Source of the DNA: an uncultured Desulfatibacillum sp.
GTDB taxonomy: Bacteria; Desulfobacterota; Desulfobacteria; Desulfobacterales; SpSt-501
Length of the DNA: 64,000 nucleotides
Direction: 5' to 3'
NCBI GenBank assembly: GCA_964570965.1
Contig: CAZNAX010000003.1
Span: 3,874 to 67,873, forward strand
Made by a program: the position numbers and the translations under genes. Shown here in pieces: positions 18,573 to 43,759 of this stretch. The notes under the pieces were generated by a model. The model was not told where the DNA came from and did not search any database. It worked only from the letters and a program-made list of their open reading frames with translations. Position 1 is the first letter of the stretch, and each line of letters begins with the position of its first letter.

Positions 18573-18664
18573 TTTCAGCTCCTCTAAAAGTCCAAGGATG
18601 ACCGGCCCGCCGACCGCTGCGGCGGGGCACTTGCATCTGGCTTCTTCACGTAGGCTGCCCAGCC

Positions 18665-20848
18665 CTACATAAATTCCTGCAAATTTCGCAGCCGGAGGAT
18701 CATCTCAGCGTGTTCGCTGCTGGCGAAGTGAACAAATGCATCCGCGTTGGCCATGGCTTGCTTGTCATAATGAACCACCGATCCGGCAATTTTAGCCGGG
18801 AGCGCCGGGCCCGATGCAGCCACCGGCTTCGCGTTGACATGTTTTAACAAGCGCCGAGCGATGAGGTGCGCCTCTTTTACGGTCGTCATCGGCAGGATCG
18901 CGATGAAAAGATTGCCCCTCATTGTTCCGATCCAATCAGCGCCGCGCAACTGCCGCTGGATTTCCGACAAAAGCGCAGCCCTCGTCTCCATTGGCACATC
19001 GGGGCCGTCCGGAACCGCAGACGCGGGGCCCCCTTTCGAAAAAGAAAAGGTGATTCCGCTTAAATCAGTCCCATATCTCGCCGAACGCGAGATTTCCTTC
19101 TCCAACAGCGCATAAGTAATTTCTTGGTTGAAAGCAACCTCATGGATCCTGCCCCCGTCGTTTTGCCCGTTTTTCTGGGCCTGCTGGATCCGTTCGAAAA
19201 TTTGTTGAAAATCGTTTTCATCCAGTCGCCGCCCGAAGTTATCGGCGCGCAGCTTCTTTAATACCTGCTTCAGCTCTTGATCCTCGGACAGTCCCTCCTC
19301 AAGGCGTTGTAACAGCGTCAATTGCCGCGGATCCCTGGCATTAAGGGATGCACTGTACGACGCCAGCTCGGCACGTATCGCTTCGACGCTGGCGTCCAAG
19401 CGCGCCTTCAAGCGGTTTTCCACCTCATCGACGAGTTGAGGGGCGATTCCTTCGCCGCGAAGGCCCTCGGCCAGCTGGGTGTTGAAAAAATTCGCCAATT
19501 TCCGGAGCCGCTCGTCCCCGGCCCCCTCCATGTTGGATCCGACGTTTAGCATTTTCGGACCGAGCCGCTCGATGTAGCCGACCAAGATGTCGCACAAGGA
19601 TTGAGCGCTGCCGGCCTGCCGCTCGATCTCGGTTGCCAAATACAAAAACCGCGCCAAACCAGCGGGATCGGCCTTCCAGCGGTTCGTCAAATCGGCTTCG
19701 TCCACCCCGATCGCCTCGGCGCCTTGCTTCACCCATTCGGCGAGTTGAACATCCTGGCGGTCCTTGCCCAACCGCTTGACTAAATCCAAGAAATCCGACA
19801 GCGGCATCCCTTCTGCGACCAGGCCATCTCTTATTTTGGGCAGCAGCCGTCGCAGCTCCCTGTCGGAGGGGACGATTCGCTGCAGCACGAACGCCAAACG
19901 CTCAATGGAAGTCTTGCCTCTATCGTACTCCTTCCGGAGCAACTCCAGAATGACGGTATCCGATAGCTCTTCGGCCTGCTGGCTGACCTCCTCGGGTGAA
20001 TCCATCAGGATTCCCAGCGAGCTCTGGGTGTGAATCGCCTCCTGGAGTTCGTGCTTCATTTTCACCAAAGCGGAGGCCAACTCCGAAAGGCTGAGCGAGG
20101 AGCCTTCGGATAACATCTTTCGGACTTCATGCCCCAGCAACGCGAGGCGCTCGGCAATTGAACGGGAAGGCCCCTGAGCGAGGTCCGCCTCGCTGTTCCG
20201 GCCGGCCGCACCCCGCGCGACTAAATTTCTTGAAAAAGTCAACGGGTCGTTTATCAGTTCTTTCAGGGACAGACCTTGATCGACCTCCTCCAGGAGCAAT
20301 TTCCCCGCAATCATGCCTAACGCTTCCTGGTATTGGCGGGAGGCGTTCAATTCATCGCTGAGCGTCTCCGACTTTGCGACGGTCCCTTTTGGAACGATCC
20401 GATCATCCTCCGTCACCTTCTTATAGGAGACATGATTGATGCGAAGGTGCGTGATCTGCATCGAGCCGCAGGCGCTTTTCATCAGATCGGCTGTCGGGAA
20501 GTTGCGGGTATCCAGGAATATTTTCAAAAACCCCTCGACCTCACGCTTCTGGACATCCTGAAGCACGGCAATCGAAGTCACCTTCGCCTTGTTAAAATGA
20601 GATGACATCTTGAAGTAATTCAGGCTCGAATCCAGCGGTTCGTCCTCGAGGAAGAACTGCCCCCGGCTGTAAAGCAACACCAGCGGTGAAGCGGTTTTGA
20701 GCAATTCGCATATGGATCGATAGAACTCCTCCACCGCCTGGACCGAATAGGGATGAACGAGACCATACATGGATACGCGATTAAACATGAGCACGAAGGA
20801 CTTGCCGGCCTTGTGATGGCCTTTTTTGATGGAATGCAATTTGATCAT
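18665..20848 (-). CDS. 727-aa uncharacterised helical protein with C-terminal degenerate GGDEF-like domain
   Basis: Intact ORF whose ATG overlaps the kinase stop (ATGA at 20845-20848). The last ~170 aa align by eye to the GGDEF fold ('RGADWIGTMRGNLFIAILPMT...AHLIARRLLKHV...IAGSVVHY'), with GG(D/E)EF replaced by RGNLF. Confidence 0.7.
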   Translation of the reverse strand: MIKLHSIKKGHHKAGKSFVLMFNRVSMYGLVHPYSVQAVEEFYRSICELLKTASPLVLLYSRGQFFLEDEPLDSSLNYFKMSSHFNKAKVTSIAVLQDVQKREVEGFLKIFLDTRNFPTADLMKSACGSMQITHLRINHVSYKKVTEDDRIVPKGTVAKSETLSDELNASRQYQEALGMIAGKLLLEEVDQGLSLKELINDPLTFSRNLVARGAAGRNSEADLAQGPSRSIAERLALLGHEVRKMLSEGSSLSLSELASALVKMKHELQEAIHTQSSLGILMDSPEEVSQQAEELSDTVILELLRKEYDRGKTSIERLAFVLQRIVPSDRELRRLLPKIRDGLVAEGMPLSDFLDLVKRLGKDRQDVQLAEWVKQGAEAIGVDEADLTNRWKADPAGLARFLYLATEIERQAGSAQSLCDILVGYIERLGPKMLNVGSNMEGAGDERLRKLANFFNTQLAEGLRGEGIAPQLVDEVENRLKARLDASVEAIRAELASYSASLNARDPRQLTLLQRLEEGLSEDQELKQVLKKLRADNFGRRLDENDFQQIFERIQQAQKNGQNDGGRIHEVAFNQEITYALLEKEISRSARYGTDLSGITFSFSKGGPASAVPDGPDVPMETRAALLSEIQRQLRGADWIGTMRGNLFIAILPMTTVKEAHLIARRLLKHVNAKPVAASGPALPAKIAGSVVHYDKQAMANADAFVHFASSEHAEMILRLRNLQEFM

Positions 20849-21771
20849 TGTTCGTCGTATTCCATGTATTTCCGCCCATAGCCGCGCAGCGCATCCAGGA
20901 AATGGGCGCAGGAAGGAAATCGCTGCCGCGGATCGGACGCCGTAGCCGTAGCCACGATGGCGTCCATCTCCGGATGGAGACGCGGGTTGGCCTGGGACGG
21001 CGGTTTAATGAAAATTGGCTGCTCGTTGAACTTTCTCCTGAGCAGATCCTGGTAAGACGAGCAGGCAGCCAACGGCAGCTTATCAACCACGAGCCTGAAA
21101 AGCAGTACGCCGGCCGCGTAGACATCCGTACGGGCATCGGTTTCTGCCAGCCTGACTTGCTCCGGAGCCATGTAGAGTGGACTCCCGCGAAGCGCCGGGC
21201 CGACGTCGGTGGGGTGGCCGGCCATTTTGGATATCCCGAAATCGGTGATGATCGGAATGAGGCCGGCCGTGCACATCAAAATGTTCTCGGGCTTGATGTC
21301 CAGATGAATCACGCCCCGGCCATGCGCGTACCCCAAAGCCTCCAAGAGTTGTCTGAGAACTGAGAGAGTCGTTTTCAGGGGCAGCATCCGGCGGGAGGGG
21401 AGAACGTTGCGCGCGATCTTATCAAGAACCGCCGATAGGGAGGTTCCATCGATCAATTGCATGGTGAAATATCGGAAATGCTCATTCGTTCCGATATCGT
21501 ATATCGGCACGATATTCGGATGCGATAGACCGGCAACGGCCTCGGCTTCCTGTTCAAAAAGACGGATGGAATCATCCGTACACATGCACTTTGGCAGCAC
21601 TTTCACCGCAATTCGCCGATTTAAAGATTGCTGATACGCGATGAAGACGATCCCCATGCTGCCGCGCGCCAGCTCCTTCAGGATGGTCGCGTTACCGATG
21701 CTCATGCCGATGGCATGCGTAGCATCATATGGGTCGGTATAAGTGACATTCATCGCTTCGACTGCCATCAT
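20845..21771 (-). CDS. Hanks-type Ser/Thr protein kinase (kinase domain only)
   Basis: 308 aa. 'LARGSMGIVF', 'IAVKVL', 'HLDIKPENIL', 'TDFGISK', 'SPLYMAPEQ'. Confidence 0.9.
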   Translation of the reverse strand: MMAVEAMNVTYTDPYDATHAIGMSIGNATILKELARGSMGIVFIAYQQSLNRRIAVKVLPKCMCTDDSIRLFEQEAEAVAGLSHPNIVPIYDIGTNEHFRYFTMQLIDGTSLSAVLDKIARNVLPSRRMLPLKTTLSVLRQLLEALGYAHGRGVIHLDIKPENILMCTAGLIPIITDFGISKMAGHPTDVGPALRGSPLYMAPEQVRLAETDARTDVYAAGVLLFRLVVDKLPLAACSSYQDLLRRKFNEQPIFIKPPSQANPRLHPEMDAIVATATASDPRQRFPSCAHFLDALRGYGRKYMEYDEQ

Positions 21772-27575: not shown

Positions 27576-29240
27576 TCACCGCCCTGCAGCCATCGGCCGC
27601 ACCCCCTGCGACCGCCGCGCGTGCAGCCAATATGGATCGATTAAATCCTCGAATATCGTCATGGCGGCTTCGGCGCCTTGCCCGGAGGCGGTTACGATCT
27701 GCTTGTAGCCGCCCTCAACATCTCCGGCCGAGTAGATGCCCGGCCGGCTGGTGCGATGGCGGCCGTCCTGTTTGATGTAGCCGTCCTCCGTGAGGTCCAG
27801 TCCCATTTTTTTTGCCAGTTCCACCGCCGGTTCGTACCCGATGGCGATGAAGACGCCGTCGGTGGGGAGAGCCGTCGAGCGTTGAGTGGCATGGTTGAAA
27901 AGCGCGATCTCCCGCACCCGCTCCTCGCCACGAATTTCCTGAATCTCGGTGTTCCAGAGCACGGGGATTTGATTTTCCGTCAGCTGCCGGGTAAGGAATT
28001 CCTGGGCGCGGAGGCTATCGCGGCGATGAATCAACGTGACCTTCACCCCCATGTGAAAAAGATGGAGGGCCTCGGTGACGGCGCTGTTGCCTCCACCCAC
28101 CATCACCACCTGCTTGCCCTTGAACAGGGGGCCGTCGCAGGTGCTGCAATAGCTGACCCCGCGACCGGCGAGTCGAGATTCGCCGGGCACATTGAGGTGG
28201 CGATGGTTGGCCCCGGTGGTCAGCAGAACGGTCTTGGTTAAAAACTTGCGACGACTGGTCTGCACGACAATCGGTGAAGCATACTGGACATCCACCACCC
28301 CTTCTCCTGGAAAAATCTGCACATACTGCAGCGCATGGCTCACCATGATGTCAACCAGGGTTTTGCCGCCCACGGACGTGAACCCGGGATAGTTTTCGAC
28401 CACCGGCGTGGTGGCTACCTGGCCGCCCAAGGCTTGACGTTCAACGATGGCGGTTTTCAAACCGCTGCGCACGGCATAAATCCCCGCAGTCAGACCGGCT
28501 GGCCCGCCCCCCACGATGAGCAGATCGGTCTCCACCTGTTCGGCATCGCTTTCCGGGATAAACAGGGTTTGGGGCTCCAGTTTTTGGAGCGACAGAGCGA
28601 ATACCTCTTCGGGTTGAGCGCCCTGACCGATCAGAATGTCGTTGGCGAAGGCCTGCGGAACGCTCAGCGCCGAATACTGCTTCGCCAACTCGGGCTCGCA
28701 TTGGATGTCGATGATCTCCAACGAGATCTGCTCCGGCAGTTCCATGGCGGCCTTTACGGCATTGACCGCCTGCTGCGGACAATACGGACACGTGGGACTG
28801 ACAAACACTTTGACATGCCGCGGCGTGTCGATTCGCTGGATCACCTTGCGCGACTGTTCGCTGAGGTTGCTCCGTCCCATGCCGACCAAGATCAGCGTCT
28901 CGAGAAAGGTTCGCGCCTCTTCACCCATGGGTGCGCCCAGCCAGCGGATAGCGTATTTTCCGGGAGCGATAATCAGCGTGGGAGAGCTCTCGACGTTGTG
29001 GCGGCGGGCCAGATCGTGAGCCAGATCGTATTCCTTCAACGTGATCCGGGGGCTCAACTCACGAAACGCGCGGATCACTTGGCGGGTCGTCTGGGCAAAA
29101 ACATCGTCACGGGCCTTGTCGACAAATAACAGCAGCGGAATGTCGTTAGGCAGCTGCTCGAATGTTTGGCGCAACTGCCTCAAATAGGCTTCGCTGGCCA
29201 GATCTTGCGCCGCTTCATCCCTGCCCTTCACACCTTGCAT
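27576..29240 (-). CDS. AhpF-like fusion: N-terminal thioredoxin/glutaredoxin-fold domains plus thioredoxin-disulfide reductase
   Basis: 554 aa. GGAGG SD. 'SPTCPYCPQ' redox motif, 'DLLIVGGGPAGLTAGIY' FAD site, 'YCSTCDGPLF' redox-active disulfide, 'VVMVGGGNSA' NAD(P)H site. Confidence 0.85.
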   Translation of the reverse strand: MQGVKGRDEAAQDLASEAYLRQLRQTFEQLPNDIPLLLFVDKARDDVFAQTTRQVIRAFRELSPRITLKEYDLAHDLARRHNVESSPTLIIAPGKYAIRWLGAPMGEEARTFLETLILVGMGRSNLSEQSRKVIQRIDTPRHVKVFVSPTCPYCPQQAVNAVKAAMELPEQISLEIIDIQCEPELAKQYSALSVPQAFANDILIGQGAQPEEVFALSLQKLEPQTLFIPESDAEQVETDLLIVGGGPAGLTAGIYAVRSGLKTAIVERQALGGQVATTPVVENYPGFTSVGGKTLVDIMVSHALQYVQIFPGEGVVDVQYASPIVVQTSRRKFLTKTVLLTTGANHRHLNVPGESRLAGRGVSYCSTCDGPLFKGKQVVMVGGGNSAVTEALHLFHMGVKVTLIHRRDSLRAQEFLTRQLTENQIPVLWNTEIQEIRGEERVREIALFNHATQRSTALPTDGVFIAIGYEPAVELAKKMGLDLTEDGYIKQDGRHRTSRPGIYSAGDVEGGYKQIVTASGQGAEAAMTIFEDLIDPYWLHARRSQGVRPMAAGR

Positions 29241-29434
29241 TTTCTAACCTCCCCAGGTCCGTGCACTCGGTGCCGGACCGCACTTAAAGATTAGGCGACT
29301 GCTGGCGGGACATAAAAGCATATCGACCTTGGACCGACAGCGGCCAAGCGCCCCAGTCATTCCGTTAACCGCCTTTGTTACCGAAGTAGCAAGGTAAAAC
29401 GCAGCGGACCGGTGTCAATCCGCCGGATCGACCC

Positions 29435-30160
29435 TCACCTGCTCTCGGATGGTGCCTCCGGGACTCCCAGCAGTGCCGCAGCCAAAGCCAGGTCCTCGGC
29501 CGTGGTGATCTTGATGTTGCGGGAGCTGCCAGGCCAAATGTGAACCACGGCTCCTATGCGCTCTACCAGGCTAGCGTCGTCAGTGGCCACCACCTGCTCA
29601 CGCCGCGCGCACTCGTGAGCTTTCCGAATCACGGCGGTCTGAAACGCCTGGGGGGTCTGCGCCGCCCATACGCGCTCCCGGGGTAGGGTGGCTTCGATGC
29701 AGCCGGAGTCCGAAATGCGTTTGAGGGTATCCCAGACGGGCAAAGCGGCGATGCACGCCCCGTGCTGCCTTGCAGCGTTGACGCACGCCGTGATGGTCTG
29801 CCCGGTCACGAATGGCCGGACGGCGTCATGAATCACCACCAGGGAGGCATCGAGAGGAATGGCGGCCAGGCCGTTGAAAACCGAATCCTGTCGCCGCCGG
29901 CCTCCGCCAACCACGGTAATGCGCTTGCATAATGCGGCGGGGTCTACCATGGCATCGCGCACAAAGGTGATATCCTCGGGCGGCACTACCAGGACGATTC
30001 GATCGATGATGTCACAACGGTCGAAGACGAGCAGGGTGCGCGTGAGAATCGGCACCCCCGCCAGCGCGATGTACTGTTTGGGAACGCGGCTGCGGAAACG
30101 GACCCCTTTTCCACCTGCGACGATAATAGCATACACCATGTCTGCGCCGAATGAATCCAT
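29435..30160 (-). CDS. ispD: 2-C-methyl-D-erythritol 4-phosphate cytidylyltransferase
   Basis: 'AIIVAGGKGVRF', 'PKQYIALAG', 'VVIHDAVRPF'. The start may be ATG 30139 (MVYAII) instead of 30160. Confidence 0.9.
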   Translation of the reverse strand: MDSFGADMVYAIIVAGGKGVRFRSRVPKQYIALAGVPILTRTLLVFDRCDIIDRIVLVVPPEDITFVRDAMVDPAALCKRITVVGGGRRRQDSVFNGLAAIPLDASLVVIHDAVRPFVTGQTITACVNAARQHGACIAALPVWDTLKRISDSGCIEATLPRERVWAAQTPQAFQTAVIRKAHECARREQVVATDDASLVERIGAVVHIWPGSSRNIKITTAEDLALAAALLGVPEAPSESR

Positions 30161-30220: not shown

Positions 30221-31555
30221 TCACCTCAAATACTTGAGCTCTTTCGGCAAAGGGACTCCCTTGCCCATGGTATCTTCGCCATAATTGACAGCGGAAAGGA
30301 TCTCGATGTCCCTGAGCGTGCGGGCGTCTCCCTCGAACACGACTTCCTTGAGGTTTTCCTTTTGGATCTTACCACCGGCCCATTGGATGTCCAGGACGCT
30401 ACTGGCGTCAAACCGGTCCTCCCCTACAACGAGTTCCACCTGACCGCCGTAATGTTGTACGATTTTAGCCACCAGCAGGCTGGGTCGAGCGTGGAAGCCA
30501 AGCTTCTGAGGAACCCCCACCCGAACCATAGCACGCTCGATGTTTTCATTGAGAATCATCCGGGCATGCTCTTTGCCCAGCGCCAGAAAATGGCAAACAT
30601 AATACAGCCCGTAATTCATGGTGCAGTCGAGCAGCTGCTCCGGGGTCACCACCATCGCCAACTCGTCCTGCACGCGCTTATAGGTATTTTTGTACCCGGC
30701 TTCATGCAGGTGGCGTTCGTAGAAATGCAGGAGCCGGCCGACCATCTGGAGCAAATGGAACACCACGGAGAAGAACCCGCGCAATTGCTTGAGTTTCCGG
30801 TTTCCAAAGCGAAACCCCCCGTGAATCACGTAAGTGTCGAAGGAGGACTGCAGGTTGTGAACCAGCATCTCGTAACGCCGCACTTCGACTTCATTCACTT
30901 TGTCGGGAACAATCCCCAGAATCTCTGGGTACCGGTAGCGCTCATAGAATTTGATCTGGTCGAAATTTTTTACCAGGTTCAGAAATTCGCTGGCGATTTT
31001 GACAATGTGCTGTTTTTGCTGGTTGCGGTTCTCGTCATCAATGTCGTACTCCAGCGGATCGGTCGTCTGGATGCTGGGAAAATCGGCATCTTGAAAGCGA
31101 TTCTCCGGAAGAGGGATCCCCAACCGCTGCGCTTCGTTCAGCGCCGACGGCGCCATCTTCTGCAGGCACTGGTTAAGAAAACGTAGGCTTTCCTCTCCCT
31201 CGCGTTCGAAGTCCGCGCTGTCCGGAAGATCATAGTAGCGCAGTCGATTGGAGATATGCTTCTGAAAATTGGATGCCAAGCCGATATGACGCATGCCGGC
31301 CGTCAACTCACGAAATAGGTACCAGTTTTTATTATTTTTAGCACCGTGGTAATCGAGAAAGTCCTCCAGCAGGGTCGAGGACGAGGCCAGTGTGGAATAA
31401 AATTTCTGCGTAAAACGCAAGTTGTTCGAAGATCGACCGGCGATGTAAAATATGCATTTCAGAAAATCATGCGAAAAAATACCGATCTTTTCGGAAAATT
31501 TGGAGCTGGGCGCGGATAAAGAGGTTTCAGAGTGATGTTGCGAAATCTGATCCAT
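30221..31555 (-). CDS. 444-aa protein: uncharacterised ~340-aa N-terminal region fused to a C-terminal HPr (PTS phosphocarrier) domain
   Basis: C-terminal 'VGVPQKLGFHARPSLLVAKIVQHYGGQVELVVGEDRFDASSVLDIQWAGG...VFEGDARTLRDIEIL' matches the HPr fold; the active-site His codon is at 30491-30493. Start set to ATG 31553-31555 because the 527-aa ORF-track version runs into rnpB. Confidence 0.7.
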   Translation of the reverse strand: MDQISQHHSETSLSAPSSKFSEKIGIFSHDFLKCIFYIAGRSSNNLRFTQKFYSTLASSSTLLEDFLDYHGAKNNKNWYLFRELTAGMRHIGLASNFQKHISNRLRYYDLPDSADFEREGEESLRFLNQCLQKMAPSALNEAQRLGIPLPENRFQDADFPSIQTTDPLEYDIDDENRNQQKQHIVKIASEFLNLVKNFDQIKFYERYRYPEILGIVPDKVNEVEVRRYEMLVHNLQSSFDTYVIHGGFRFGNRKLKQLRGFFSVVFHLLQMVGRLLHFYERHLHEAGYKNTYKRVQDELAMVVTPEQLLDCTMNYGLYYVCHFLALGKEHARMILNENIERAMVRVGVPQKLGFHARPSLLVAKIVQHYGGQVELVVGEDRFDASSVLDIQWAGGKIQKENLKEVVFEGDARTLRDIEILSAVNYGEDTMGKGVPLPKELKYLR

Positions 31556-31637
31556 GCGATCCTGATGGGTGGAGTGCCCCCGACGATGAACGCCTCGCGT
31601 CGCCAGGTCGGTTTTCGATTCCGGGGATGGGATCAAC

Positions 31638-32029
<392 letters not shown>

Positions 32030-32046
<17 letters not shown>

Positions 32047-32767
32047 GATCTTCGTCCCAGTAAATGATCCTCTCACAGTTGGGGCAATTCTTCAAGCGAT
32101 CGACCCGCTGAAGGTCATTATACATCTGAGGTGGAATGTTCACATGGCAGCCGCCACAGACCGAGGCGGAAACCGAGCAGATGGCGACTCCGTTCGCCTT
32201 CTTGGCCTTGACGCGCCGGTAAAGGGCCAGGGCCTCCGCCGAAATCCGGCCCCCCAATGCATCCGCGTCCGCCCTTAACGCCTCTAACCGTTGCCGGGCC
32301 AACTCCGCGTCCTGCAGCACACTTTCTTTTTCAGCGCGAATCAAGCCCGCCTGGGCATTCAACCGATCTTGATGTTCTTTCACCGAAGCGCTCCCCGCCT
32401 CCACTTGCTCCATTCCCGCCAGAATCTCGTCTTCAATTTTGGATCCGATGGCGCTGAGATCATCGATCTCTTTCAGACCGGATTGGTATTCTTTGTTGGT
32501 CTTCACCGAGCGCAGTTTTTCTTGGCTTTTCGCGATCCGGCCCTGATTCACCAGCAAATCGGACTCAAGGGTCCGTATGCGTTTGCTAAGCTCCTGGATA
32601 TGAGCCTTCCCGGATTCAACGGCGGAAATGAATTGGTTGAGGTGATCGTCCAGTTCGGCCGTACGCCCCTCCACCTGATCCAGGTCCAGCTGGGTTCGAT
32701 GAATTTTCAGTTCAACATCTTGTAGTTTGACCAGCATAGCGATCTGATGCCGGATGTCATTGCGCAT
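32030..32767 (-). CDS. COG1579-type coiled-coil protein with C-terminal C4 zinc ribbon
   Basis: 245 aa. Long heptad region, then 'CSVSASVCGGCHVNIP...CPNCERIIYW'. Confidence 0.8.
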
Positions 32768-32842
32768 GAGCGCCGTCCTCCTTCGTTCCGGGGGATGCCG
32801 GGTTGAATGCCGCCATCACCCGGCAGCGCGGCGGCCGCAAGG

Positions 32843-33655
32843 TCACACCACCGAGAATGGGTCTTTTTCCAGCGAGCATGCCTGCACCTGAAACCGCCGG
32901 TGACGGCGGCTGAACGCCCGCCGCAAGCGCTGCACCATCGCGTCGACCATCAGATGCTCGGAATGGAAGTGCCCGACATCCACCACCCCGCGCCGGGCAT
33001 ATTCGATGTCACGGACTTCATGGTAACGTAGATCACCGCTGATGAAAGCGTGCGCGTCTGTTTTTAAAAAGTCGCCGACCAAACTACCGCCGCTTCCGGT
33101 CGCCACCGCCACGCGCTTGACGCGTAGATCTGGATCGCCTGCCATCCGAACCGTCGCAGCTCCCAGACGCTGTTTGACCTCCCGCGCCAGATCGACCAGA
33201 GGCATGGCTCGGGAGAGCGTTCCGACCCGGCCGATGCCGTGACGGCGGGAGTCGCTAGCGCCACCCGGTGGCATCAACGGCCCCAATCGCCGCAGCCCCA
33301 GACGGTGCGCCAGCAAATCGTTGAGCCCGCCCGCGACGGCATCCAAATTCGTGTGCAAGCAATAGATGGCCAAACCATGGCGCACGGCCAGCTCAATAAC
33401 GGCCCCGGAAGGCGTGTCGGTTGCGATTTGCTTGACCGGACGGAAAAAGAGGGGGTGATGCGTGATGAGCAGGTCGACCTGGAAACGGCACGCCGCAGCC
33501 ACCACATCCGGTCCGGAATCCAGCGCGACCCACACCGAGTCGATGCGTCTGCGCAGGTCTCCGATCTGCAAGCCGACGTTGTCCCACGCTTCGGCCAACG
33601 ATGGCGGCGCCATGCGCTCCAGCGCGTTAATGATGTCGGCAAGCAGCAGCTGCAT
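32843..33655 (-). CDS. Nif3-like dinuclear metal-centre protein (GTP cyclohydrolase 1 type 2 homolog)
   Basis: 270 aa. 'AEAWDNVGLQIGD', 'DLLITHHPLFF', 'AIYCLHTNLD', 'FISGDLRYHE', 'DVGHFHSE'. Confidence 0.9.
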   Translation of the reverse strand: MQLLLADIINALERMAPPSLAEAWDNVGLQIGDLRRRIDSVWVALDSGPDVVAAACRFQVDLLITHHPLFFRPVKQIATDTPSGAVIELAVRHGLAIYCLHTNLDAVAGGLNDLLAHRLGLRRLGPLMPPGGASDSRRHGIGRVGTLSRAMPLVDLAREVKQRLGAATVRMAGDPDLRVKRVAVATGSGGSLVGDFLKTDAHAFISGDLRYHEVRDIEYARRGVVDVGHFHSEHLMVDAMVQRLRRAFSRRHRRFQVQACSLEKDPFSVV

Positions 33656-33797
33656 GGTGCGAAAATGCGGATCCTCGCAGGTTCGGGAATATGCCGGCTC
33701 CTGGATGACCAGGATGAAAGAAGGCGCGGATTAGACCACCCACGCCTTGGGTCGAGGCATTGCCGCGCCAGCCGCCCGATAGATCTGAGCGGAGCGA

Positions 33798-33870
33798 TGG
33801 GCCCACCTGGGATCGAACCAGGGACCGACCGGTTATGAGCCGGTGGCTCTGCCAGCTGAGCTATGGGCCC
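33798..33870 (-). tRNA. tRNA with CAT anticodon (elongator Met or lysidine-modified Ile2; not initiator)
   Basis: GGGCCCATAGCTCAGCTGGCAGAGCCACCGGCTCATAACCGGTCGGTCCCTGGTTCGATCCCAGGTGGGCCCA folds as a 73-nt cloverleaf with CAT at positions 34-36. It lacks the C1:A72 mismatch and the 3-GC anticodon stem of initiators. CCA is not encoded. Confidence 0.93.
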
Positions 33871-33891
33871 CCAAGGCCTTGCGCCGCAACC

Positions 33892-33920
33892 TGTTTATCG
33901 ACTGGCCAAAGGTTTGTCAA
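33892..33920 (-). promoter_or_regulatory. candidate sigma70-type promoter for the tRNA-CAT gene
   Basis: On the minus strand: TTGACA (33915-33920), 17-nt spacer, TAAACA (33892-33897), about 20 nt upstream of the tRNA 5' end. The -10 element is weak. Confidence 0.35.
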
Positions 33921-33974
33921 GGTTGTCCGTCGATCGAGGACCTCCCCGCTGCGCTGCGGTCCGATCTCCCCGGC

Positions 33975-35858
33975 TTACGTTTCAATAAAATGCTTCAGTT
34001 TGCGGCTGCGGGTGGGATGACGGAGTTTGCGGAGCGCCTTGGCCTCGATTTGTCGGATGCGCTCGCGGGTCACCGCAAAGTCCTGACCGACCTCTTCCAA
34101 GGTATGATCGGCCTTCTCGCCGATGCCGAATCGCATCCGAAGCACCTTTTCCTCACGCGGCGTGAGTGTGGCCAGCACTTTTCGGGTTTGTTCCGCAAGA
34201 TTCATGCTCACGGCGGCTTCGGAGGGAAGCATGAATTTCTTGTCCTCGATGAAATCTCCCAGATGGCTATCCTCCTCCTCGCCGATGGGGGTTTCCAATG
34301 AAATCGGCTCGCGGGCGATTTTCAACACCTTCCGGACCTTTTCCAGCGGGATCTCCATTTTCTCGGCAATTTCCTCGGGAGTGGGTTCCCGCCCCTGCTC
34401 CTGCACCAGATAACGCGATGTGCGAATCAGTTTATTGATGGTTTCGATCATGTGCACCGGGATGCGAATGGTTCGCGCTTGATCGGCGATGGCTCGGGTA
34501 ATGGCCTGCCGGATCCACCAGGTGGCATACGTGCTGAATTTGTAGCCGCGGCGATACTCGAATTTATCCACGGCTTTCATCAAACCGATGTTGCCTTCCT
34601 GGATCAGGTCCAGAAACTGCAGCCCCCGGTTGGTGTATTTCTTGGCGATACTGACCACCAATCGAAGATTGGCCTTGGTAAGCTCGCTCTTGGCCAGCTT
34701 GGCTTTCAAGCGCCCCTCTTCGACGCTGGTCATAATGCGCTTCAACGCCCGGCTGTTGGCGCAAATTTCAACCTCCCGCGCACCATGCTTCTCGATCATC
34801 TGACGGATGTCGGCATAGGCGCCCGTAAGCTCTTCCTTCGTCGTATCGCTGCGACCGGACGCCCACCTCAAAAAGGCGGTCTTGGAGGTGAGATGATCCC
34901 GCAGCTCTTTGACGGGGGCGCTGAGTCTGTCCGCGTATTTGGCCACCCTCTTGGTCATGGATTCGGACCCCTCGATCTCCTGTTGGATCTTGCCCTCGAT
35001 CTCCTCGATCACACTGGCCTCCAACCGCCAGTCCTTAAGAAGATTGAATATGTCCGATATCAGCCGCTGCAAGTTACGTTTGGCCTTGCGTTGATCGTCG
35101 GCGTTACCGCTGGCGACATACGCCTTCTTGCGCTGCTCTAAGTTTTGCTGATGAAGGGTCTTGATCTGGCGGATGGTTTCGAGAAATTTTTCAGTTTGAA
35201 GCACCTCGTCGTTGTAGGTGTCGCCTTCGTCAATATCCCTCAACACATGCTTCGGCCGCAGGCTCCCGGTTTCGATTTTATCGCCCAGTTCAATAATGGC
35301 GTCCACCCCGATGATCGATTCCAGCAAGGAGCGCAGGACTTCCTGCTCGCCCGCTTCAATTTTCTTGGCAATTTCCACCTCGCCCTCGCGGCTGAGCAGG
35401 GTGACCATCCCCATCTCACGCAAGTACATCTTGACCGGGTCGGTCACGGATCCATAGTCGCCTCCATCCACCTCCTCGCTGACGATTTTACTTTCGGCAA
35501 CGCTTTTCAATTTCACGATTTTTTTGTTTTGCTTCTCGTCCACCACCTCGATGCCGTTGTCGTCAAACAACATCAGGGTCTCATCGATCTGTTCGGGGGA
35601 AAGCATGTCCTCTGGAAGCAATTCGTTTATTTCATCATAGGTGAGAAATCCCTGTTTCTTGCCTTTGGCGAGCAACTCTTGAATCGCCTTTTTGTTAACC
35701 TTGCTTTCCATCGGTTTTCCGCCGTCCGCGTTCATTTCTGGCCTGGCCGAACGCTTGGAGCCTTTAGGGTGCCTCGCTGCGACCGCTGGGGTGAGATCGC
35801 CGCGACGCTTGGCGGTTTTCTGAGCGGTGTCTTTTGGCTTTTTTGATTTTTTGGACAT
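33975..35858 (-). CDS. rpoD: RNA polymerase primary sigma factor RpoD
   Basis: '[33 protein letters not shown]', 'TIRIPVHM', '[30 protein letters not shown]'. Start placed at ATG 35856-35858 (MSKKSKK); the ORF-track start at 35897 is a GTG overlapping the dnaG stop. Confidence 0.95.
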
Positions 35859-35896
35859 GTCGTGGTGTCTCCCCGAATCCTCCGAAGTTGCCTGCA

Positions 35897-37741
35897 CTAT
35901 TTTTGGCGCAGCGCCGACATCTTCTGTTTTTCGCGCCGCACGGCCATTTTTTGTTTTTCGTTGAGAAGCCGCATCACTTCAGCCTCATTATGCTCGCGTT
36001 CGGCCGCTTCAATCGCCGCTTGCATTGAAGGCCCGCTCACCTGTTTCTGCCGTGTCTCCATGAACCGCCGCAAAAAGGCGCTACACCCTTTGTGCGTCCA
36101 ACTCTCATCGGTCATGGCCAACGCCACGAGGGTCTCTTTCAACGCGCCTTCTTCGATATTGGCCAGCAATTCCGGGAGTTGCTCCGGGGATTGGAAACGA
36201 TGCCGCAAGATGCTCTCCCCGGCTGATTTTAGCAGCGGAAGCGAAACGTATTCCAGGGCGTTGCTTTTGACTATCTCCGGGATCATTTCCGGAAATTGCA
36301 GCATCATGGCGATCACTTGTTGCTCGACCTGCTCATGGGTCCCCGCGCTCCGGCGTCCCGCAGCCGCAGGCGCTTGAACGCCAAGCCCCGGTGCTGCCAT
36401 CGGCTTAGCGCGGGTCTTGATTCGTTCAAGGATGGCCGTTTCATCCAGACCGATCCGCTCGGCCAGCTGTTTGACATACAGCGCCCGTGCGACGCTGTCG
36501 TTGATCGCCGATAGATACGGCTGCAGTTCCGAAACAATCCGGATCTTGCCCTCCGTGCTCAGCCCATGCTGCTGAACGGCCTGCTCCATCAAGAACGTGA
36601 TGACCCCGGGGGCATTCTGTGCGAGGCGTCGGAAGGCATCAACGCCATACGCCATCAAAAACGAATCGGGATCGTGTCCCTCCGGCAACACTAGAATATG
36701 GGTATCGGCCCGTTCCTCGCAATACACGTCTCCGCGCCGAAAATCCACGTGCTCTTTCCAGAAGAGATCGATGCAGCGCCGGGCCGAACGAATGCCGGCC
36801 TCGTCGGAGTCGTAAACAAGCACCATGCGCCCGGCATAGCGCGTCAACATCCGTATCTGTTCGGGGGTCAATGCGGTTCCCAGCGTGGCTACCGCATGGT
36901 TCACCCCGTTCTGATGCAGGGCGATCAAATCCAGATAGCCTTCGACTATGAATACGGACCCGGCCGTGCGGCAGGCATCCTTGGCCCGATCTAGACCATA
37001 AAGCACGCGACGCTTGGTGTAAACGAGTGTCTCGGGAGAGTTCAGATACTTCGGGGTGGAGTTATCCAACACTCGGCCCCCGAAGCCTACCACGCGAGCG
37101 CTTTCATCATGAATGGGGAAAATGATGCGATCTCGAAAGCGATCGTAGAAGCCGCTGCCTTCCCGGCGCGGGATCGCCAAACCCGCCTTTTCAAGCAGGC
37201 CCGGGGCGAATTTCTTGCGGCCGATGTGTCCCAGCAGAAAATCCCACCCCTTGGGTGCGTACCCCAGCCCAAACTGGTCAATGCTTTGGCGGGTCACCCC
37301 CCGTCGAGTGAGATAGTCCATAGCCGGCTTGCCGGCAGGCTGTTGCAGCAGCGCCTGCCGAAAAAAATCTGCGGCTAAACGGTTTAGTTCAAACAACGTA
37401 GCCTTTTCGCTCATCTGGCGCTGCGCCCGAGGCGACAGAGATCGCTCCGGAATCTCCACTCCACCGCGCGCGGCCAGACTGCGCAGGGCCTCGCCGAATC
37501 CGACACCGTCCCGCTTCATGACGAAGCTGAAGATGTCGCCCCCCGCGCCACACCCGAAGCAGTGATAAATCTGCTTATCGGGGCTCACCGTAAACGACGG
37601 CGTTTTTTCGGCGTGGAACGGACACAACCCGGAAAAATTTTTTCCGCTCTTCTTTAACACCACCGACTCGGCGATGACCTCTACGATGTCCAGCGCGTGC
37701 CGGATTTCGGTAATTTTATCTTCGGGAATATGGCCTGCCAA
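35897..37741 (-). CDS. dnaG: DNA primase DnaG
   Basis: 614 aa. Zinc finger '[32 protein letters not shown]', 'YLNSPET', Toprim '[10 protein letters not shown]' and 'LVYDSDEAG'. Confidence 0.95.
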
Positions 37742-39441: not shown

Positions 39442-39578
39442 ACACAAATTTTCTGTCTAACAAATTATTTACACCTGGTCAACGGAAAATAACACATTTT
39501 TCGAAGCGGTTGGCCAAACCCGACTGCCGCCAGCATCGGACGCCGGGCGGGGTGAGGCGTTTCAAAAGGGAGTCTGTG

Positions 39579-41303
39579 ATGCAGGAATTAAAGTTGGCCG
39601 ATGCGTTTAAAACCTTCACCCGAGACCAGGACAAGGTGCTCCCTCCCGAAGAAACTCTCAGGCGGTTTCGCGCCAGGCTCCAAGCGGGGCAATTAGACCT
39701 TCTCGAGGCTACGATTCGAATTGATAACGGCCGCCTCGGCATTCCGGTCTATTTGAGCCGTTGTGGCCTGGATGCGCAACGTGTCATCGGTACGCGCAAA
39801 CAAATGGGAAAAGGGGCTACACCGCCGCAGGCCGAGGCCAGCGCCGTGATGGAACTGGCCGAGCGGTTCAGCCTGTTCAGTTTCATGCAAGATCCGACCA
39901 ATTTCACCTGTGGCCCGATGACCGCCCTCCGCGAACCGGCCATCCCTTTCGAGGCGATCGCCCGTTCGGTTCACGATGCCTCGGAAGACCTGCCGAAGAG
40001 TCGACAGATCTTCGAATCCCTTTCTTTCAAATGGACCCGGGCGTTCAATCTGACCCGGGGACAGGCCGTCCTGATTCCATTCGATTGGTTTTTCGGCATC
40101 AACGAGTTCAATGGATCCTCCGCGGGCAATTGCAAAGAGGAGGCCATTTTGCAGGGCATCTGCGAAATCGTTGAACGTCACGTGTCATCCATTATCAGCC
40201 ATGAGCAACGCCGCGTTCCTGCAATCCGCCCTGAATCCGCACAAGATCCCCTGGTGGTCGACATGCTGGATCGATATCGCCAGTGCGGCATCCGCCTGTA
40301 TATCTCGGATTTCACCCTCGACACCGGAATCCCCACCGTGGGCGTGCTGGCATACGATCCTCAAACCCATCCGGCAGTGAGTGAAATCGTCTGGACCGCC
40401 GGTACCACGCCCAGCCCGGAAAAAGCGTTGAGTCGGGCGCTTACCGAGGTGGCCCAATTGGCCGGCGATTTCAATACCGGTGCCAACTATGTCGCCAGCG
40501 GACTTCCCAAGTTTCGAAATATTGCGGATGCGCGTTACGTGACCCATCCCGGCTCCGAAATCGACTTGGCCAGCCTGCCGGACGTGTCGAACCCCAACAT
40601 TCGCATGGAAATCGAAAGCTGCGTCCAGGCATTGGCCCGACGCGGGCTCGAGGTGTTCTTGGTCGATACCCAGCACCCCGGAATTCAAGTCCCCGCGTAT
40701 TACACCATTGTACCGGGCGCGCATTTTCGGGAACGATCAAGAAGCACCAGCGTGCTGATGTTCGCGGCCAAGCATGCCGTCGAAACCCTGGCGACCCGCG
40801 AGGCGACCACCACGCTGGAACGCATCGATGCGGTCCTGCCCGGGAAATATTTCGTTCAATTTTATCTCGGCCTGACTCGGCTGAAGGCGGCTGAACCGGA
40901 ATCGGCGGTTGCTTATTTTCGACGCGCTTTGGAATTAAACCCCGAACCAGCGGAAACGCCGAGCATATATAGTTACATGGGAGTCGCTCTGAAAAATATC
41001 GGCCGATTTGACGAGGCACTCGGATTTCTGCACAAAGGGCTGGAACTCGACCCGGATCGTACGGATATCCACAACCTGATCGGGTTCTGCCACTTTAAAC
41101 GCGGGGAGCATGAGGCGGCGGTGGCAGCCTTTAAGCGGGTGATCGAGTTGGATCCAAGCTCCGCCATCGACCACGCCAACCTCGGTGTCAATTATCAAGC
41201 CCTGGGGCAAGCAGACAAGGCCAGAGACTGCTATCGGTTGGCCCTAAGCCTCGATCCTGGAATCGGTTTTGCCCGCGCGCGTCTGTCTCAACTGGACCGC
41301 TGA
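39579..41303 (+). CDS. YcaO-domain protein fused to C-terminal TPR repeats
   Basis: Start set to ATG 39579 (AAGGGAG SD). 'GTRKQMGKGATPPQAEASAVMELAERFS' matches the YcaO ATP-binding core. The C-terminal ~140 aa are TPRs ('AVAYFRRALELNP', 'IGFCHFKRGEHEAAVAAFKRVIELDP', 'ARDCYRLALSLDP'). Confidence 0.8.
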   Translation: MQELKLADAFKTFTRDQDKVLPPEETLRRFRARLQAGQLDLLEATIRIDNGRLGIPVYLSRCGLDAQRVIGTRKQMGKGATPPQAEASAVMELAERFSLFSFMQDPTNFTCGPMTALREPAIPFEAIARSVHDASEDLPKSRQIFESLSFKWTRAFNLTRGQAVLIPFDWFFGINEFNGSSAGNCKEEAILQGICEIVERHVSSIISHEQRRVPAIRPESAQDPLVVDMLDRYRQCGIRLYISDFTLDTGIPTVGVLAYDPQTHPAVSEIVWTAGTTPSPEKALSRALTEVAQLAGDFNTGANYVASGLPKFRNIADARYVTHPGSEIDLASLPDVSNPNIRMEIESCVQALARRGLEVFLVDTQHPGIQVPAYYTIVPGAHFRERSRSTSVLMFAAKHAVETLATREATTTLERIDAVLPGKYFVQFYLGLTRLKAAEPESAVAYFRRALELNPEPAETPSIYSYMGVALKNIGRFDEALGFLHKGLELDPDRTDIHNLIGFCHFKRGEHEAAVAAFKRVIELDPSSAIDHANLGVNYQALGQADKARDCYRLALSLDPGIGFARARLSQLDR

Positions 41304-43574: not shown

Positions 43575-43759
43575 CACCGTCGTTTCCGGTCTGCCCCAGG
43601 AACCCGGCGGCTCCCGGCGGGCAGCGAGTTACGCTATCGCCTTGTAAGTAATTTCTAACTGTGGTATAGGTTCCGCCACGAGGTCAAGAGATGGCGGCAC
43701 CCCGGTCGACTGTCAGCGCATCGACGAGGAGCCATCGACCGCAAGGGGAATGTCGGTGT

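Follow-up and report, generated by a model that had tools for sequence, protein, structure and literature searches.

What does a phosphocarrier domain do when it forms the C terminus of a 444-aa protein whose larger part resembles no described family, at a locus that carries no other PTS gene? The question is raised by a gene on the minus strand of the window (the whole stretch of DNA that was analysed, 64,000 nucleotides long), in which a sequence-only reading had proposed an HPr domain fused to a long N-terminal region of unrecognised kind. Our survey of homologues shows this architecture to be a genuine and widely conserved bacterial protein, and the fusion probably connects phosphate signalling with a target yet to be discovered.

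Gene architecture and family

The ORF at 30221..31555 (minus strand) runs from ATG to TGA, and its translation gives a product of 444 aa. A longer reading of 527 aa, from a GTG start at 31804, was discarded, given that it overlaps into rnpB and that the N-termini of homologues lend it no support. The protein is soluble, with a maximum 19-aa hydropathy of 1.31, a value that also rules out a membrane protein, an idea prompted by spurious Foldseek hits to GPCRs and ABC transporters. A metagenome protein (P0001) is 100% identical to it. The features of the gene are as follows.

30221..31555, minus strand: whole gene, 444 codons plus TGA, encoding the helical N-domain, the HPr domain and a conserved tail
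31560..31563, minus strand: AGGA ribosome-binding site, 4 nt 5′ of the ATG, read directly from the sequence
31124..31507, minus strand: first predicted helical bundle, aa 17-144, with model helices 17-39, 50-69, 76-108 and 114-144
31028..31123, minus strand: inter-bundle linker, aa 145-176, of lower confidence (pLDDT ~75), holding L168
30542..31027, minus strand: second predicted helical bundle, aa 177-338, with helices 177-200, 209-215, 222-244, 253-283, 291-302 and 305-338
31322..31369, minus strand: motif LEDFLDYHGAKNNKNW, aa 63-78, bearing E64, D68, N75 and W78
30830..30859, minus strand: motif HNLQSSFDTY, aa 233-242, bearing H233, Q236, S237 and D240
30746..30784, minus strand: motif LRGFFSVVFHLLQ, aa 258-270, bearing R259 and H267
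30710..30727, minus strand: motif HFYERH, aa 277-282, bearing H277, E280, R281 and H282
30293..30535, minus strand: HPr-type phosphocarrier domain, aa 341-421, by model topology, Foldseek and the family profile
30485..30493, minus strand: active site His355-Ala-Arg357 in GFHARPS, the equivalents of His15 and Arg17 by HPr alignment
30398..30400, minus strand: Ser386, equivalent of the regulatory HPr Ser46 by alignment to HPr
30224..30292, minus strand: family-specific C-terminal tail AVNYGEDTMGKGVPLPKELKYLR, aa 422-444, beyond the HPr fold

Homologues number 2,484 at E ≤ 1e-3, all of them full length, with 483 family representatives at the 50% identity level. They form a large, multi-phylum family found in at least 584 reference species, with carriers that include Desulfobacterales, other Thermodesulfobacteriota, Planctomycetota, Gammaproteobacteria and Spirochaetia. 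The family has two length classes, the second of which carries an insertion of ~80-130 aa inside the HPr fold. Conservation was counted over 470 members, comprising the window clade (121), a divergent short class (157) and the long class (192). The sole label for the family in public databases is “HPr family phosphocarrier protein”, a name that covers only a quarter of the protein and hides the family, and our literature searches found no description of an architecture that combines HPr with a helical domain. Among the relatives, P0269 has a C-terminal calcineurin-like phosphoesterase domain and P0153 is a TIR fusion. The latter raised the possibility of a role in anti-phage defence, which we rejected: PADLOC recognises the TIR part only, and nothing in the family.

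Because more than 2,400 full-length homologues share the uninterrupted architecture, the fusion is not the product of a frameshift or of an assembly that joined two ORFs, and the proposal of a single gene with an HPr C terminus holds. An artefact of this kind, or an HPr-like part that is a decayed and non-functional remnant, might explain why the HPr of the window protein scores under curated thresholds and why the two parts differ in composition. Such readings run against the recurrence of this architecture across thousands of independently made assemblies (complete genomes of cultured Desulfosarcina widdelii among them), the retention of the active-site His and Arg in 469 of the 470 members, and high model confidence for both domains. 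Conservation already refutes them, and we accord them practically no weight.

As for the composition itself, the N-terminal 340 aa had been described as rich in Asn, Phe, Tyr and Lys. Compared with eight neighbouring genes, Asn (6.2 versus 2.4%), Phe (7.1 versus 2.8%) and Tyr (5.3 versus 2.0%) are indeed enriched, as is His (4.4 versus 2.2%), whereas Lys is not (5.3 versus 5.4%). The coding part for this region is A/T-richer than the neighbouring genes, in line with the earlier description (GC 0.50 versus 0.59), mostly owing to amino-acid composition, since GC3 is only mildly lower (0.66 versus 0.72). Horizontal acquisition, a candidate suggested by the low GC, was rejected on the same grounds: GC3 lies near the local norm and the bias stems from the amino acids encoded.

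The HPr domain and its helical partner

Residues 341-421 are a true HPr-type phosphocarrier domain, as judged from profile comparisons and the structural model. The secondary structure of the AlphaFold model follows the topology beta-alpha-beta-beta-alpha-beta-alpha (strand 341-347, helix 357-369, strands 374-377 and 380-383, helix 387-399, strand 404-410 and helix 411-421), and Foldseek matches the model to HPr, Crh and NPr structures with probabilities of 0.96-1.0, target TM-scores of 0.58-0.73 and rmsd of 2.4-3.9 Å; for the best of these matches, the probability is ~1.0 and the target TM-score 0.65-0.73. The window protein alone scores 19.8 bits against PF00381 (curated cut-off 23) and 23.6 bits against TIGR01003 (curated cut-off 47.9), in each case over the first half of the model only. 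The PF00381 assignment expected by the sequence-only reading thus fails for this single protein but succeeds at the family level, where 32 of 36 diverse members match (best E = 1.2e-10, several above the cut-off). A profile of 36 diverse members also matches the PDB HPr entries 3le5 and 3le1 over residues 2-88 (E = 6.7e-8 and 1.1e-7, respectively).

The active-site histidine proposed within GFHARP corresponds to His355 (CAC codon, 30491-30493), inside GFHARPS; from its alignment with HPr, this residue is presumed to be the one that is phosphorylated. Of the 470 members, 469 have H355, 469 have R357 and 468 have P358; by this measure, the phospho-site of the HPr domain is under strong selection. 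The DASSVLDI stretch noted at the Ser46 region is likewise present, with S386 aligned to HPr Ser46. This serine is kept throughout the window clade (121/121) and in most of the divergent short class (139/157), but in only 104 of the 192 long-class members; because nearly half of the long class has lost it, serine regulation is not family-wide. Beyond the fold, the 23-residue tail has no counterpart in free-standing HPr (the alignment of the profile to PDB entries stops near profile position 420), and every one of the three classes retains its residues Y425, E427, D428 and P437.

The helical partner was modelled with AlphaFold2 over aa 1-340 from 115 diverse sequences (pLDDT 89.9, pTM 0.88). 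In this model, the N-domain spans ~320 aa (17-338), has ten helices and looks like a pair of four-helix bundles. An internal duplication giving rise to the two bundles was considered and dropped, as a repeat test between the two halves with hhalign found no sequence-profile similarity (probability 1.1%). In the linker, L168 does not vary across the 115 aligned sequences. The N-domain carries a polar site that is almost without variation, with E64, D68, H100, E222, R226, H233, S237, D240, R259, H267, H277, R281 and H282, with E222 and R226 just upstream of HNLQSSFDTY on the same helix face. Among the 470 members, the counts are 453 for E64, 467 for D68, 438 for N75 and 432 for W78 in the first bundle, and 464 for E222, 451 for R226, 463 for H233, 447 for S237, 468 for D240, 462 for R259, 454 for H267, 467 each for H277 and R281, and 464 for H282 in the second. 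Conservation reaches at least 98.5% for each of D68, E222, H233, D240, H277, R281 and H282, in three classes whose mutual identity is only 25-35%; the site is thus kept from phylum to phylum, and these conserved residues look like an active site.

That the N-terminal region matches no described family was upheld: the N-domain found no match in Pfam, NCBIfam, PADLOC or PDB sequences, and its model found no accepted structural match among PDB structures (Foldseek) or in BFVD. The closest candidate is the CHAD fold, whose long domains are defined by ~300 aa, two four-helix bundles and conserved histidines (PMC6537752). The helical domain, with about this length, apparently two such bundles and conserved histidines of its own, might be a very divergent CHAD/phosin-type polyphosphate binder that would place HPr on polyphosphate granules; Competibacteraceae are among the carriers, and PptA (6rn5) reaches a Foldseek probability of 0.91 where every other N-domain match stays at or below 0.30. 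However, the PptA match has an E-value of 0.14 and a TM-score of only 0.31-0.35, none of 36 members matches PF05235 at E ≤ 1, and the 115-sequence profile, compared by hhalign with E. coli YgiF, a genuine CHAD reference (own PF05235 match 2.9e-22), reaches a probability of 0.2%. The halves lack repeat similarity, as noted above, and the N-domain has a median pI of 6.1-6.5 and a net charge of -4 to -5 in all three classes, with four acidic residues among its conserved positions, as opposed to the strongly basic surface of CHAD. A search for Ppk1, Ppx and YgiF homologues found none in the window and none in ~170 related loci. Together, the Pfam, hhalign, charge and repeat results and the missing Ppk1/Ppx neighbours rule out CHAD membership, and we regard a polyphosphate binder of this type as highly improbable.

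Neighbouring genes and PTS partners

The immediate surroundings of the gene comprise three features.

31645..32036, minus strand: rnpB (RNase P RNA, class A), 89 nt upstream; Rfam RF00010, 279.8 bits
29435..30160, minus strand: ispD (MEP cytidylyltransferase), 60 nt downstream; PF01128, E = 3.6e-65
29402..29425, minus strand: terminator-like hairpin and T-run just 3′ of ispD, from a consensus scan in which such sites do not exceed the number expected by chance

The RF00010 and PF01128 matches bear out the neighbours that had been named, rnpB upstream and ispD downstream across a 60-nt gap. On the same strand, rnpB lies upstream of the gene in 73 of 75 clade loci and ispD directly downstream in 69 of 73, with a median gap of -2 nt. 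The consensus scan found no terminator-like site between the gene and ispD, and the hairpin beyond ispD is a weak candidate for the end of the transcription unit. From this gene order, ispD is a probable operon partner of the HPr-fusion gene in the Desulfobacterales clade, and the two genes often appear to be translationally coupled.

The rnpB-gene-ispD arrangement is tight in Desulfobacterales; other clades have different neighbours, and no universal partner gene emerged from neighbourhoods that vary between clades. An independent ispD-ispF-gene arrangement occurs in the long-class locus L169, phosphofructokinase-like genes adjoin the gene in 11 long-class loci, and two NDK genes lie directly downstream of the family member in L172. 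Genes for glycogen phosphorylase, glycogen synthase, GH57 or isoamylase adjoin long-class members in four loci (L085-L088). These neighbourhoods hint at housekeeping or central metabolism. A regulator of glycogen metabolism, suggested by GlgP, GlgA, GH57 or isoamylase in four of the first six long-class contexts, was ruled out by neighbour clustering over 169 loci and BLAST, which placed such genes in L085-L088 only, plus a GT4 gene in L126. No glycogen gene was found in the window or in the Desulfobacterales loci. The association counts as no more than a minor hint.

The earlier claim that the window holds no EI, EIIA, EIIB/C or HprK gene was confirmed. Pfam scans found no PTS gene among the 30 window ORFs; E. 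coli PtsH, PtsI, Crr, PtsN, NPr and RapZ, run as tblastn queries against all six frames of the 64-kb window, gave no match; and for HprK, addressed through Pfam, no suitably sized window ORF gave a match. Genes of the rpoN cluster were also absent from the window. In the wider family, an EIIA-Ntr-like gene lies 3.8 kb from the family member in L173, the only such case among ~170 related loci. Since nearby PTS genes are typically missing across the family, their absence from the window says little. A phosphodonor for the HPr domain is plausible: within the same order, cultured Desulfotignum phosphitoxidans has ptsI, ptsH and ptsN at other places in its genome (PMC4046663), and regulatory PTS chains without transporters are found in Proteobacteria, Planctomycetes and Leptospira (PMC2405797).

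Possible roles and comparison with known systems

To our knowledge, in every characterised HPr fusion (FPr, multiphosphoryl transfer proteins and DhaM) the partner gives or takes the phosphoryl group of HPr, and it is on this basis that a mechanism can be proposed here. By analogy, our preferred but tentative reading is that the HPr domain receives a phosphoryl group from enzyme I and then exchanges this phosphate with, or signals it to, the helical domain, the fusion acting as a new PTS output module. A putative EI or EI-Ntr, encoded elsewhere in the genome, would phosphorylate His355 from PEP, and the phosphoryl group or the phosphorylation state would then pass in cis to the fused helical domain, either by His-to-His transfer onto one invariant N-domain histidine or by the HPr face docking, in a phosphorylation-dependent manner, at the conserved N-domain site, thereby switching the activity or binding function of the helical domain. 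Since homologues of known function are lacking for the N-domain, the data single out none of its histidines as the acceptor. In the window clade, Ser386 might provide a second, HprK/P-type input. The phosphorelay-controlled regulator or enzyme put forward by the sequence-only reading is compatible with, and somewhat strengthened by, the retention of H355 and R357 in 469 of 470 members and by the His/Asp/Glu/Arg cluster of the N-domain, although it is only partly supported. A more specific proposition, that the helical domain is a new phosphohistidine partner of HPr, serving as a phospho-acceptor effector or as an enzyme-I-independent two-bundle phosphodonor, we consider unlikely.

The conserved site could instead belong to a PEP-dependent enzyme rather than a regulator, with HPr delivering phosphate to a small molecule or cofactor at the N-domain. 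On the model of DhaM-DhaL-DhaK, the His/Asp/Glu/Arg site would hold the bound molecule, probably with a metal, and the substrate might be MEP- or isoprenoid-related in Desulfobacterales and belong to sugar-phosphate or storage metabolism in other clades. Five His, four acidic residues and three Arg, all near-invariant, would suit a catalytic or metal site better than a protein interface; the coupling to ispD in 69 of 73 clade loci, the ispD-ispF arrangement in L169, the 11 phosphofructokinase-like neighbourhoods, the NDK pair and the phosphoesterase domain of P0269 point the same way. Nevertheless, none of the kinase, phosphatase or metal-enzyme folds known from the PDB is similar, the ispD link is confined to one order and one other locus, and the data suggest no substrate. 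Because ispD and ispF are common among housekeeping genes, the ispD adjacency may be a historical accident. An enzyme of this kind strikes us as a doubtful candidate.

HPr could also serve solely as a phosphorylation-state-dependent docking module, tethering or releasing either an external partner or the helical domain itself but transferring no phosphoryl group to the N-domain. HPr is known to bind partners allosterically: free HPr in E. coli docks onto glycogen phosphorylase or Rsd, and solved HPr complexes with both (9s8b and 9s8k; 4xwj) are among the fold matches; glycogen genes adjoin long-class members in L085-L088, and Ser46 is kept in the window clade. Yet glycogen genes are restricted to these four loci, with the GT4 gene of L126, out of 86 long-class loci, and docking leaves the catalytic-looking N-domain site unexplained, so that we find this reading quite unlikely.

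In many bacteria without PTS sugar transporters, the PTS chain is a pure sensor of carbon and energy state, and we know of regulatory PTS targets in only a few model proteobacteria. The family described here welds near-perfectly kept residues of HPr chemistry to a conserved domain without known relatives, and its carriers, several hundred species at least, include environmentally dominant sulfate reducers. If the helical domain is a new phosphohistidine partner of HPr, the proposition considered unlikely above, then sulfate reducers, planctomycetes, spirochaetes and some gammaproteobacteria would possess an output or input branch of the regulatory PTS that has gone unrecognised; in Desulfobacterales, the ispD operon would be the route by which this branch couples the PEP/pyruvate state of the cell to the making of isoprenoid precursors by the MEP pathway. 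Knowledge of what the helical domain does would add a new output, or a new phosphodonor, to the PTS and would give a function to a domain with neither a Pfam entry nor a structural neighbour, possibly with insight into how central-carbon status is tied to isoprenoid synthesis or storage metabolism.

Among known systems, free-standing HPr (PtsH) and NPr (PtsO) share with the window protein the fold, the G-x-H-x-R-P active site and, in the window clade, the serine at the Ser46 position. They are ~85-90 aa long, whereas the HPr domain here is the last quarter of 444 aa, followed by the 23-aa tail, and is divergent enough in sequence to fall under the curated PF00381 and TIGR01003 cut-offs; HPr genes usually accompany ptsI, EII genes or the rpoN-ptsN cluster, a linkage that the window gene lacks. 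Covalent fusion of HPr is shared with FPr/FruB, MTPs (HPr-EI-EIIA) and DhaM (EIIA-Man-HPr-EI), and known fusions pair HPr with EI or EIIA domains (PMC2405797). Here, by contrast, the partner is an all-helical domain of an uncharacterised family, N-terminal to HPr, and no signal of EI, EIIA-Fru, EIIA-Glc or EIIA-Man was obtained with Pfam and NCBIfam scans, which took in 36 relatives, or with tblastn.

The likeness of the N-domain to CHAD/phosins (PF05235; PptA 6rn5, the YgiF C-terminal domain and CtCHAD) is architectural at most. PRD regulators (LicT/BglG, MtlR and LevR) contain helical domains in which HPr~P phosphorylates conserved histidines; each PRD is a five-helix unit of ~100 aa, and PRDs are not known to be fused to HPr. 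They offer a functional analogy only, in that phosphoryl transfer from HPr could likewise govern a helical domain whose histidines are conserved: PF00874 found no match, no PRD structure was among the top Foldseek matches of either model, and the HPr-fusion family, unlike PRD regulators, has no DNA- or RNA-binding domain. Finally, Crh and other HPr-like proteins, which work solely through Ser46 or by binding, show an HPr-like fold in use outside sugar transport. Ser46 is kept in the window clade, but Crh lacks His15. The HPr-fusion family nearly always keeps His15 and Arg17 while many of its members have lost Ser46, a pattern that points to His rather than Ser chemistry.

The HPr-fusion gene and its family

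30221-31555, minus strand: HPr-fusion ORF, 444 uninterrupted codons, TGA stop
4 nt upstream of its ATG: AGGA ribosome-binding site

A mechanical ORF list sets the start of this gene farther out, at a GTG (31804), a placement rejected for its overlap with the RNase P RNA gene and for want of support from homologue N-termini. The sequence-only reading had allowed that a frameshift or assembly artefact might have joined two genes, an objection that fails on the homologues: a large protein collection holds 2,484 at E<=1e-3, and those among the matches listed are all full length, at 419-485 aa, so that the fusion is a single gene. Searched exhaustively with a profile, 1.84 billion cluster representatives yielded 483 (193 of them below 1e-30). 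When each species was represented by a single genome, a relative turned up in at least 584 species, and the best 80 matches were all in Desulfobacterales, including the cultured Desulfosarcina widdelii PP31 and Desulfosudis oleivorans. The short form found in the window (430-445 aa) is that of Desulfobacterales, and more divergent versions of the same length occur in other Thermodesulfobacteriota and in unclassified bacteria. A long class (505-550 aa), from metagenome-assembled genomes labelled Planctomycetota/Phycisphaerales, Gammaproteobacteria (including Competibacteraceae) and Spirochaetia, carries an apparently helical insertion of ~80-130 residues within the HPr domain, between helix 2 and the last strand (P0126, P0134, P0159 and ~190 other proteins; loci L084-L169). 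An HPr domain with so large an internal insertion appears to be undescribed. Rare relatives add further domains, namely an N-terminal TIR domain matching Thoeris ThsB-like and other defence TIR models (P0153, 759 aa) and a C-terminal calcineurin-like phosphoesterase (Metallophos_2) domain (P0269, 689 aa).

Judged on its own sequence, the C terminus of the window protein is probably HPr, as proposed, yet it stays below the cut-offs of PF00381 (19.8 bits against 23) and TIGR01003 (23.6 against 47.9), matching the first half of each model only. At the level of the family the assignment is clear: 32 of 36 relatives (28-58% identity) match PF00381 (best E = 1.2e-10), and a profile built from these 36 aligns along the full length of solved HPr chains (3le5 residues 2-88, E = 6.7e-8). 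The AlphaFold model has the beta-alpha-beta-beta-alpha-beta-alpha order of HPr, and Foldseek pairs it with HPr, Crh and NPr structures at probability 0.96-1.0 and target TM-scores of 0.58-0.73. The HPr part is a divergent member of a well-known family. It is followed by a 23-residue tail, AVNYGEDTMGKGVPLPKELKYLR, which lies beyond the HPr fold; every class conserves this tail, and free HPr has nothing equivalent.

The active-site histidine, His355, is encoded at 30491-30493 inside GFHARPS, where it had first been read, and the DASSVLDI stretch likewise lies at the Ser46 region, its S386 aligning with HPr Ser46. In a 470-member alignment, 469 proteins keep the His15 equivalent, 469 the Arg17 equivalent and 468 the Pro next to it; the phospho-accepting His/Arg pair is under near-absolute selection. 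The Ser46 equivalent is present in 121/121 members of the window's clade, 139/157 of the divergent short class and 104/192 of the long class, about half of which has lost it with His15 and Arg17 kept throughout. Beside this conservation, that the fusion is an artefact or a dead remnant is scarcely credible.

The N-terminal helical domain

The first 340 residues had been described as rich in Asn, Phe, Tyr and Lys and as A/T-rich. Against eight neighbouring genes, Asn, Phe and Tyr, together with His, are indeed two- to three-fold enriched, but Lys is not; GC is lower, as claimed (0.50 against 0.59). With GC3 at 0.66 against 0.72 in the neighbouring genes, the A/T-richness comes mainly from amino-acid composition and does not point to foreign DNA. 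Given a maximum 19-residue hydropathy of 1.31 and a GRAVY of -0.42, the protein is soluble. A model of residues 1-340, from a 115-sequence alignment spanning all classes, has ten helices (pLDDT 89.9, pTM 0.88):

Residues 17-144: four long helices
Residues 145-176: linker, less confident
Residues 177-338: four long and two short helices

Conservation falls mostly on polar residues. Invariant in the 115-sequence alignment are D68, L168, E222, H233, D240, H277 and R281; among 470 members, conservation reaches at least 98.5% at each of D68, E222, H233, D240, H277, R281 and H282 and lies at 95-98% for E64, H100, R226, S237, R259 and H267. In helices 222-244 and 253-283 the conserved residues recur every three to four positions, on one face per helix. 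The architecture is one of two conserved domains, with an active-site-like polar cluster in the helical one. The cluster suggests a site for catalysis, or one that binds metal or phosphate, and not just a structural core.

That this region resembles nothing recognised held up in every search. The window protein and its relatives match no Pfam or NCBIfam family here and no PADLOC model; no PDB sequence is found, not even by the family profile with the threshold relaxed to E<=10; and a Foldseek check against PDB and BFVD gives no structure with an E-value under 0.04. By Foldseek probability one PDB structure stands out, PptA of Streptomyces chartreusis (6rn5), a CHAD-domain "phosin", at 0.91 (others <=0.30), with an E-value of 0.14 and a TM-score of ~0.3. 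CHAD domains, ~300 or ~200 aa long, consist of two four-helix bundles about a pseudo-twofold axis and have a conserved, strongly basic surface to which polyphosphate binds (PMC6537752). A two-bundle architecture common to both is possible, whereas membership of CHAD is rejected: no HPr-fusion member scanned matches PF05235; aligned by hhalign with E. coli YgiF, which itself matches PF05235 at 2.9e-22, the family profile reaches a probability of 0.2%; a profile comparison between the two halves of the domain finds no resemblance (probability 1.1%); every class has a slightly acidic domain (median pI of 6.1-6.5, net charge between -4 and -5), unlike the basic CHAD surface; and neither the window nor ~170 related loci contain a ppk, ppx or YgiF-like gene. 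A divergent polyphosphate-binding, CHAD-like module is accordingly very improbable.

Genomic neighbourhoods

The minus-strand gene order in the window is:

35897-37741, minus: dnaG
33975-35897, minus: rpoD
33798-33870, minus: tRNA
32843-33655, minus: NIF3/DUF34 family
32030-32767, minus: CT398-like coiled-coil and C4 zinc ribbon
31645-32036, minus: rnpB (RNase P RNA; Rfam RF00010, 279.8 bits), 89 nt upstream of the HPr-fusion gene
29435-30160, minus: ispD, 60 nt downstream of the HPr-fusion gene
27576-29240, minus: 554-aa fusion of thioredoxin/glutaredoxin-like N-terminal domains and a thioredoxin-reductase-type flavoprotein

Both neighbours were correctly named from the sequence, and both are conserved among Desulfobacterales loci extending far enough, with, on the same strand, rnpB directly upstream in 73/75 and ispD directly downstream in 69/73. 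The median gap to ispD in Desulfobacterales is -2 nt, the stop and start codons overlapping, and in the window no terminator-like site separates the two genes, the first one following ispD. The link to ispD in the window's clade is therefore operon-like, and the genes are likely co-transcribed and, in most relatives, translationally coupled. rnpB may share their transcript, or its 3' processing may set the 5' end of the mRNA.

The macromolecular-synthesis-type cluster (32030-37741, minus), which ends at rnpB, is conserved in ~50 of 83 related loci, and the thioredoxin-reductase-type fusion keeps its place directly after ispD in related genomes (L001, L002). The upstream region varies within Desulfobacterales: in 25 loci the gene is preceded at a few hundred nt by a 394-aa SufB/SufD-like ORF in the same orientation (for example, L047 8352-9596), and the window has none there. 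Elsewhere in the window lie:

17835-18572, minus: FHA-domain protein
20845-21771, minus: Ser/Thr protein kinase
39510-41303: YcaO cyclodehydratase fused to TPR repeats
41316-43577: dynamin-family GTPase
44540-47122: triple-GAF adenylate/guanylate cyclase

A 727-aa ORF without a Pfam match (18665-20848, minus) separates the FHA and kinase genes, and the three (17835-21771) may form an FHA/kinase signalling module with an uncharacterised middle component. An 814-aa ORF (14578-17022, plus) also lacks a Pfam match. Synteny with L002 covers the YcaO-TPR and dynamin genes.

Across the loci compared, the family has no universal neighbour; what recurs is a housekeeping and central-carbon setting. Outside Desulfobacterales, 12-15 Phycisphaerales-type loci have the order LysR, HAD, an unknown gene, the family member, a second unknown gene, flavodoxin and FabA; a phosphofructokinase-like gene adjoins the family member in 11; glycogen phosphorylase, glycogen synthase, GH57 or isoamylase adjoin four (L085-L088, gammaproteobacterial or unassigned); two nucleoside-diphosphate-kinase genes directly follow a short-class member in a locus that also has malic enzyme (L172 8001-10587); and others have LPS or translation genes beside them. 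In L169 (1480-4389) a long-class member immediately follows ispD-ispF, all three genes sharing a strand, so that the MEP-pathway link recurs independently, though in a single locus.

Proposed phosphoryl transfer and known systems

The window had been read as free of PTS genes, and six-frame tblastn with EI, HPr, EIIA-Glc, EIIA-Ntr, NPr and RapZ over its 64 kb and Pfam scans of 30 of its ORFs bear this out. The absence is a property of the whole family: among ~170 related loci, an EIIA-Ntr-like gene appears in L173 alone, at 3.8 kb from the family member. Regulatory PTS chains without transporters are typical of Proteobacteria, Planctomycetes, Chlamydiae and Leptospira (PMC2405797), and ptsI, ptsH and ptsN are reported from the Desulfobacterales isolate Desulfotignum phosphitoxidans (PMC4046663), a background favourable to an enzyme I donor.

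We tentatively favour a scheme in which enzyme I would phosphorylate His355 from PEP and the helical domain would act as cis partner. Either an invariant histidine of that domain would take up the phosphate, or docking of the HPr face, phosphorylated or unphosphorylated, would switch the domain; in the window's clade, Ser386 might bring in HprK/P-type control as well. To our knowledge, the partner domain in every characterised HPr fusion donates or accepts the phosphoryl group of HPr, which makes the helical domain most likely a cis partner. A pure docking role without cis transfer we consider rather improbable. The site-like polar cluster would also suit a PEP-driven enzyme phosphorylating a small molecule, by DhaM/DhaL logic, which we rate as unlikely beside the favoured scheme.

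The family is widespread, strongly conserved and open to direct test. Its public names ("HPr family phosphocarrier protein", "HPr-like phosphotransfer protein", "hypothetical protein") cover, where they name a domain, only the last quarter of these proteins. The architecture and its N-terminal domain are undescribed in the searchable literature, where no account of HPr joined to such a helical domain was found, and the domain is without a family model or structural neighbour; the HPr fusions listed in a survey of PTS fusions are those with EI or EIIA only (PMC2405797).
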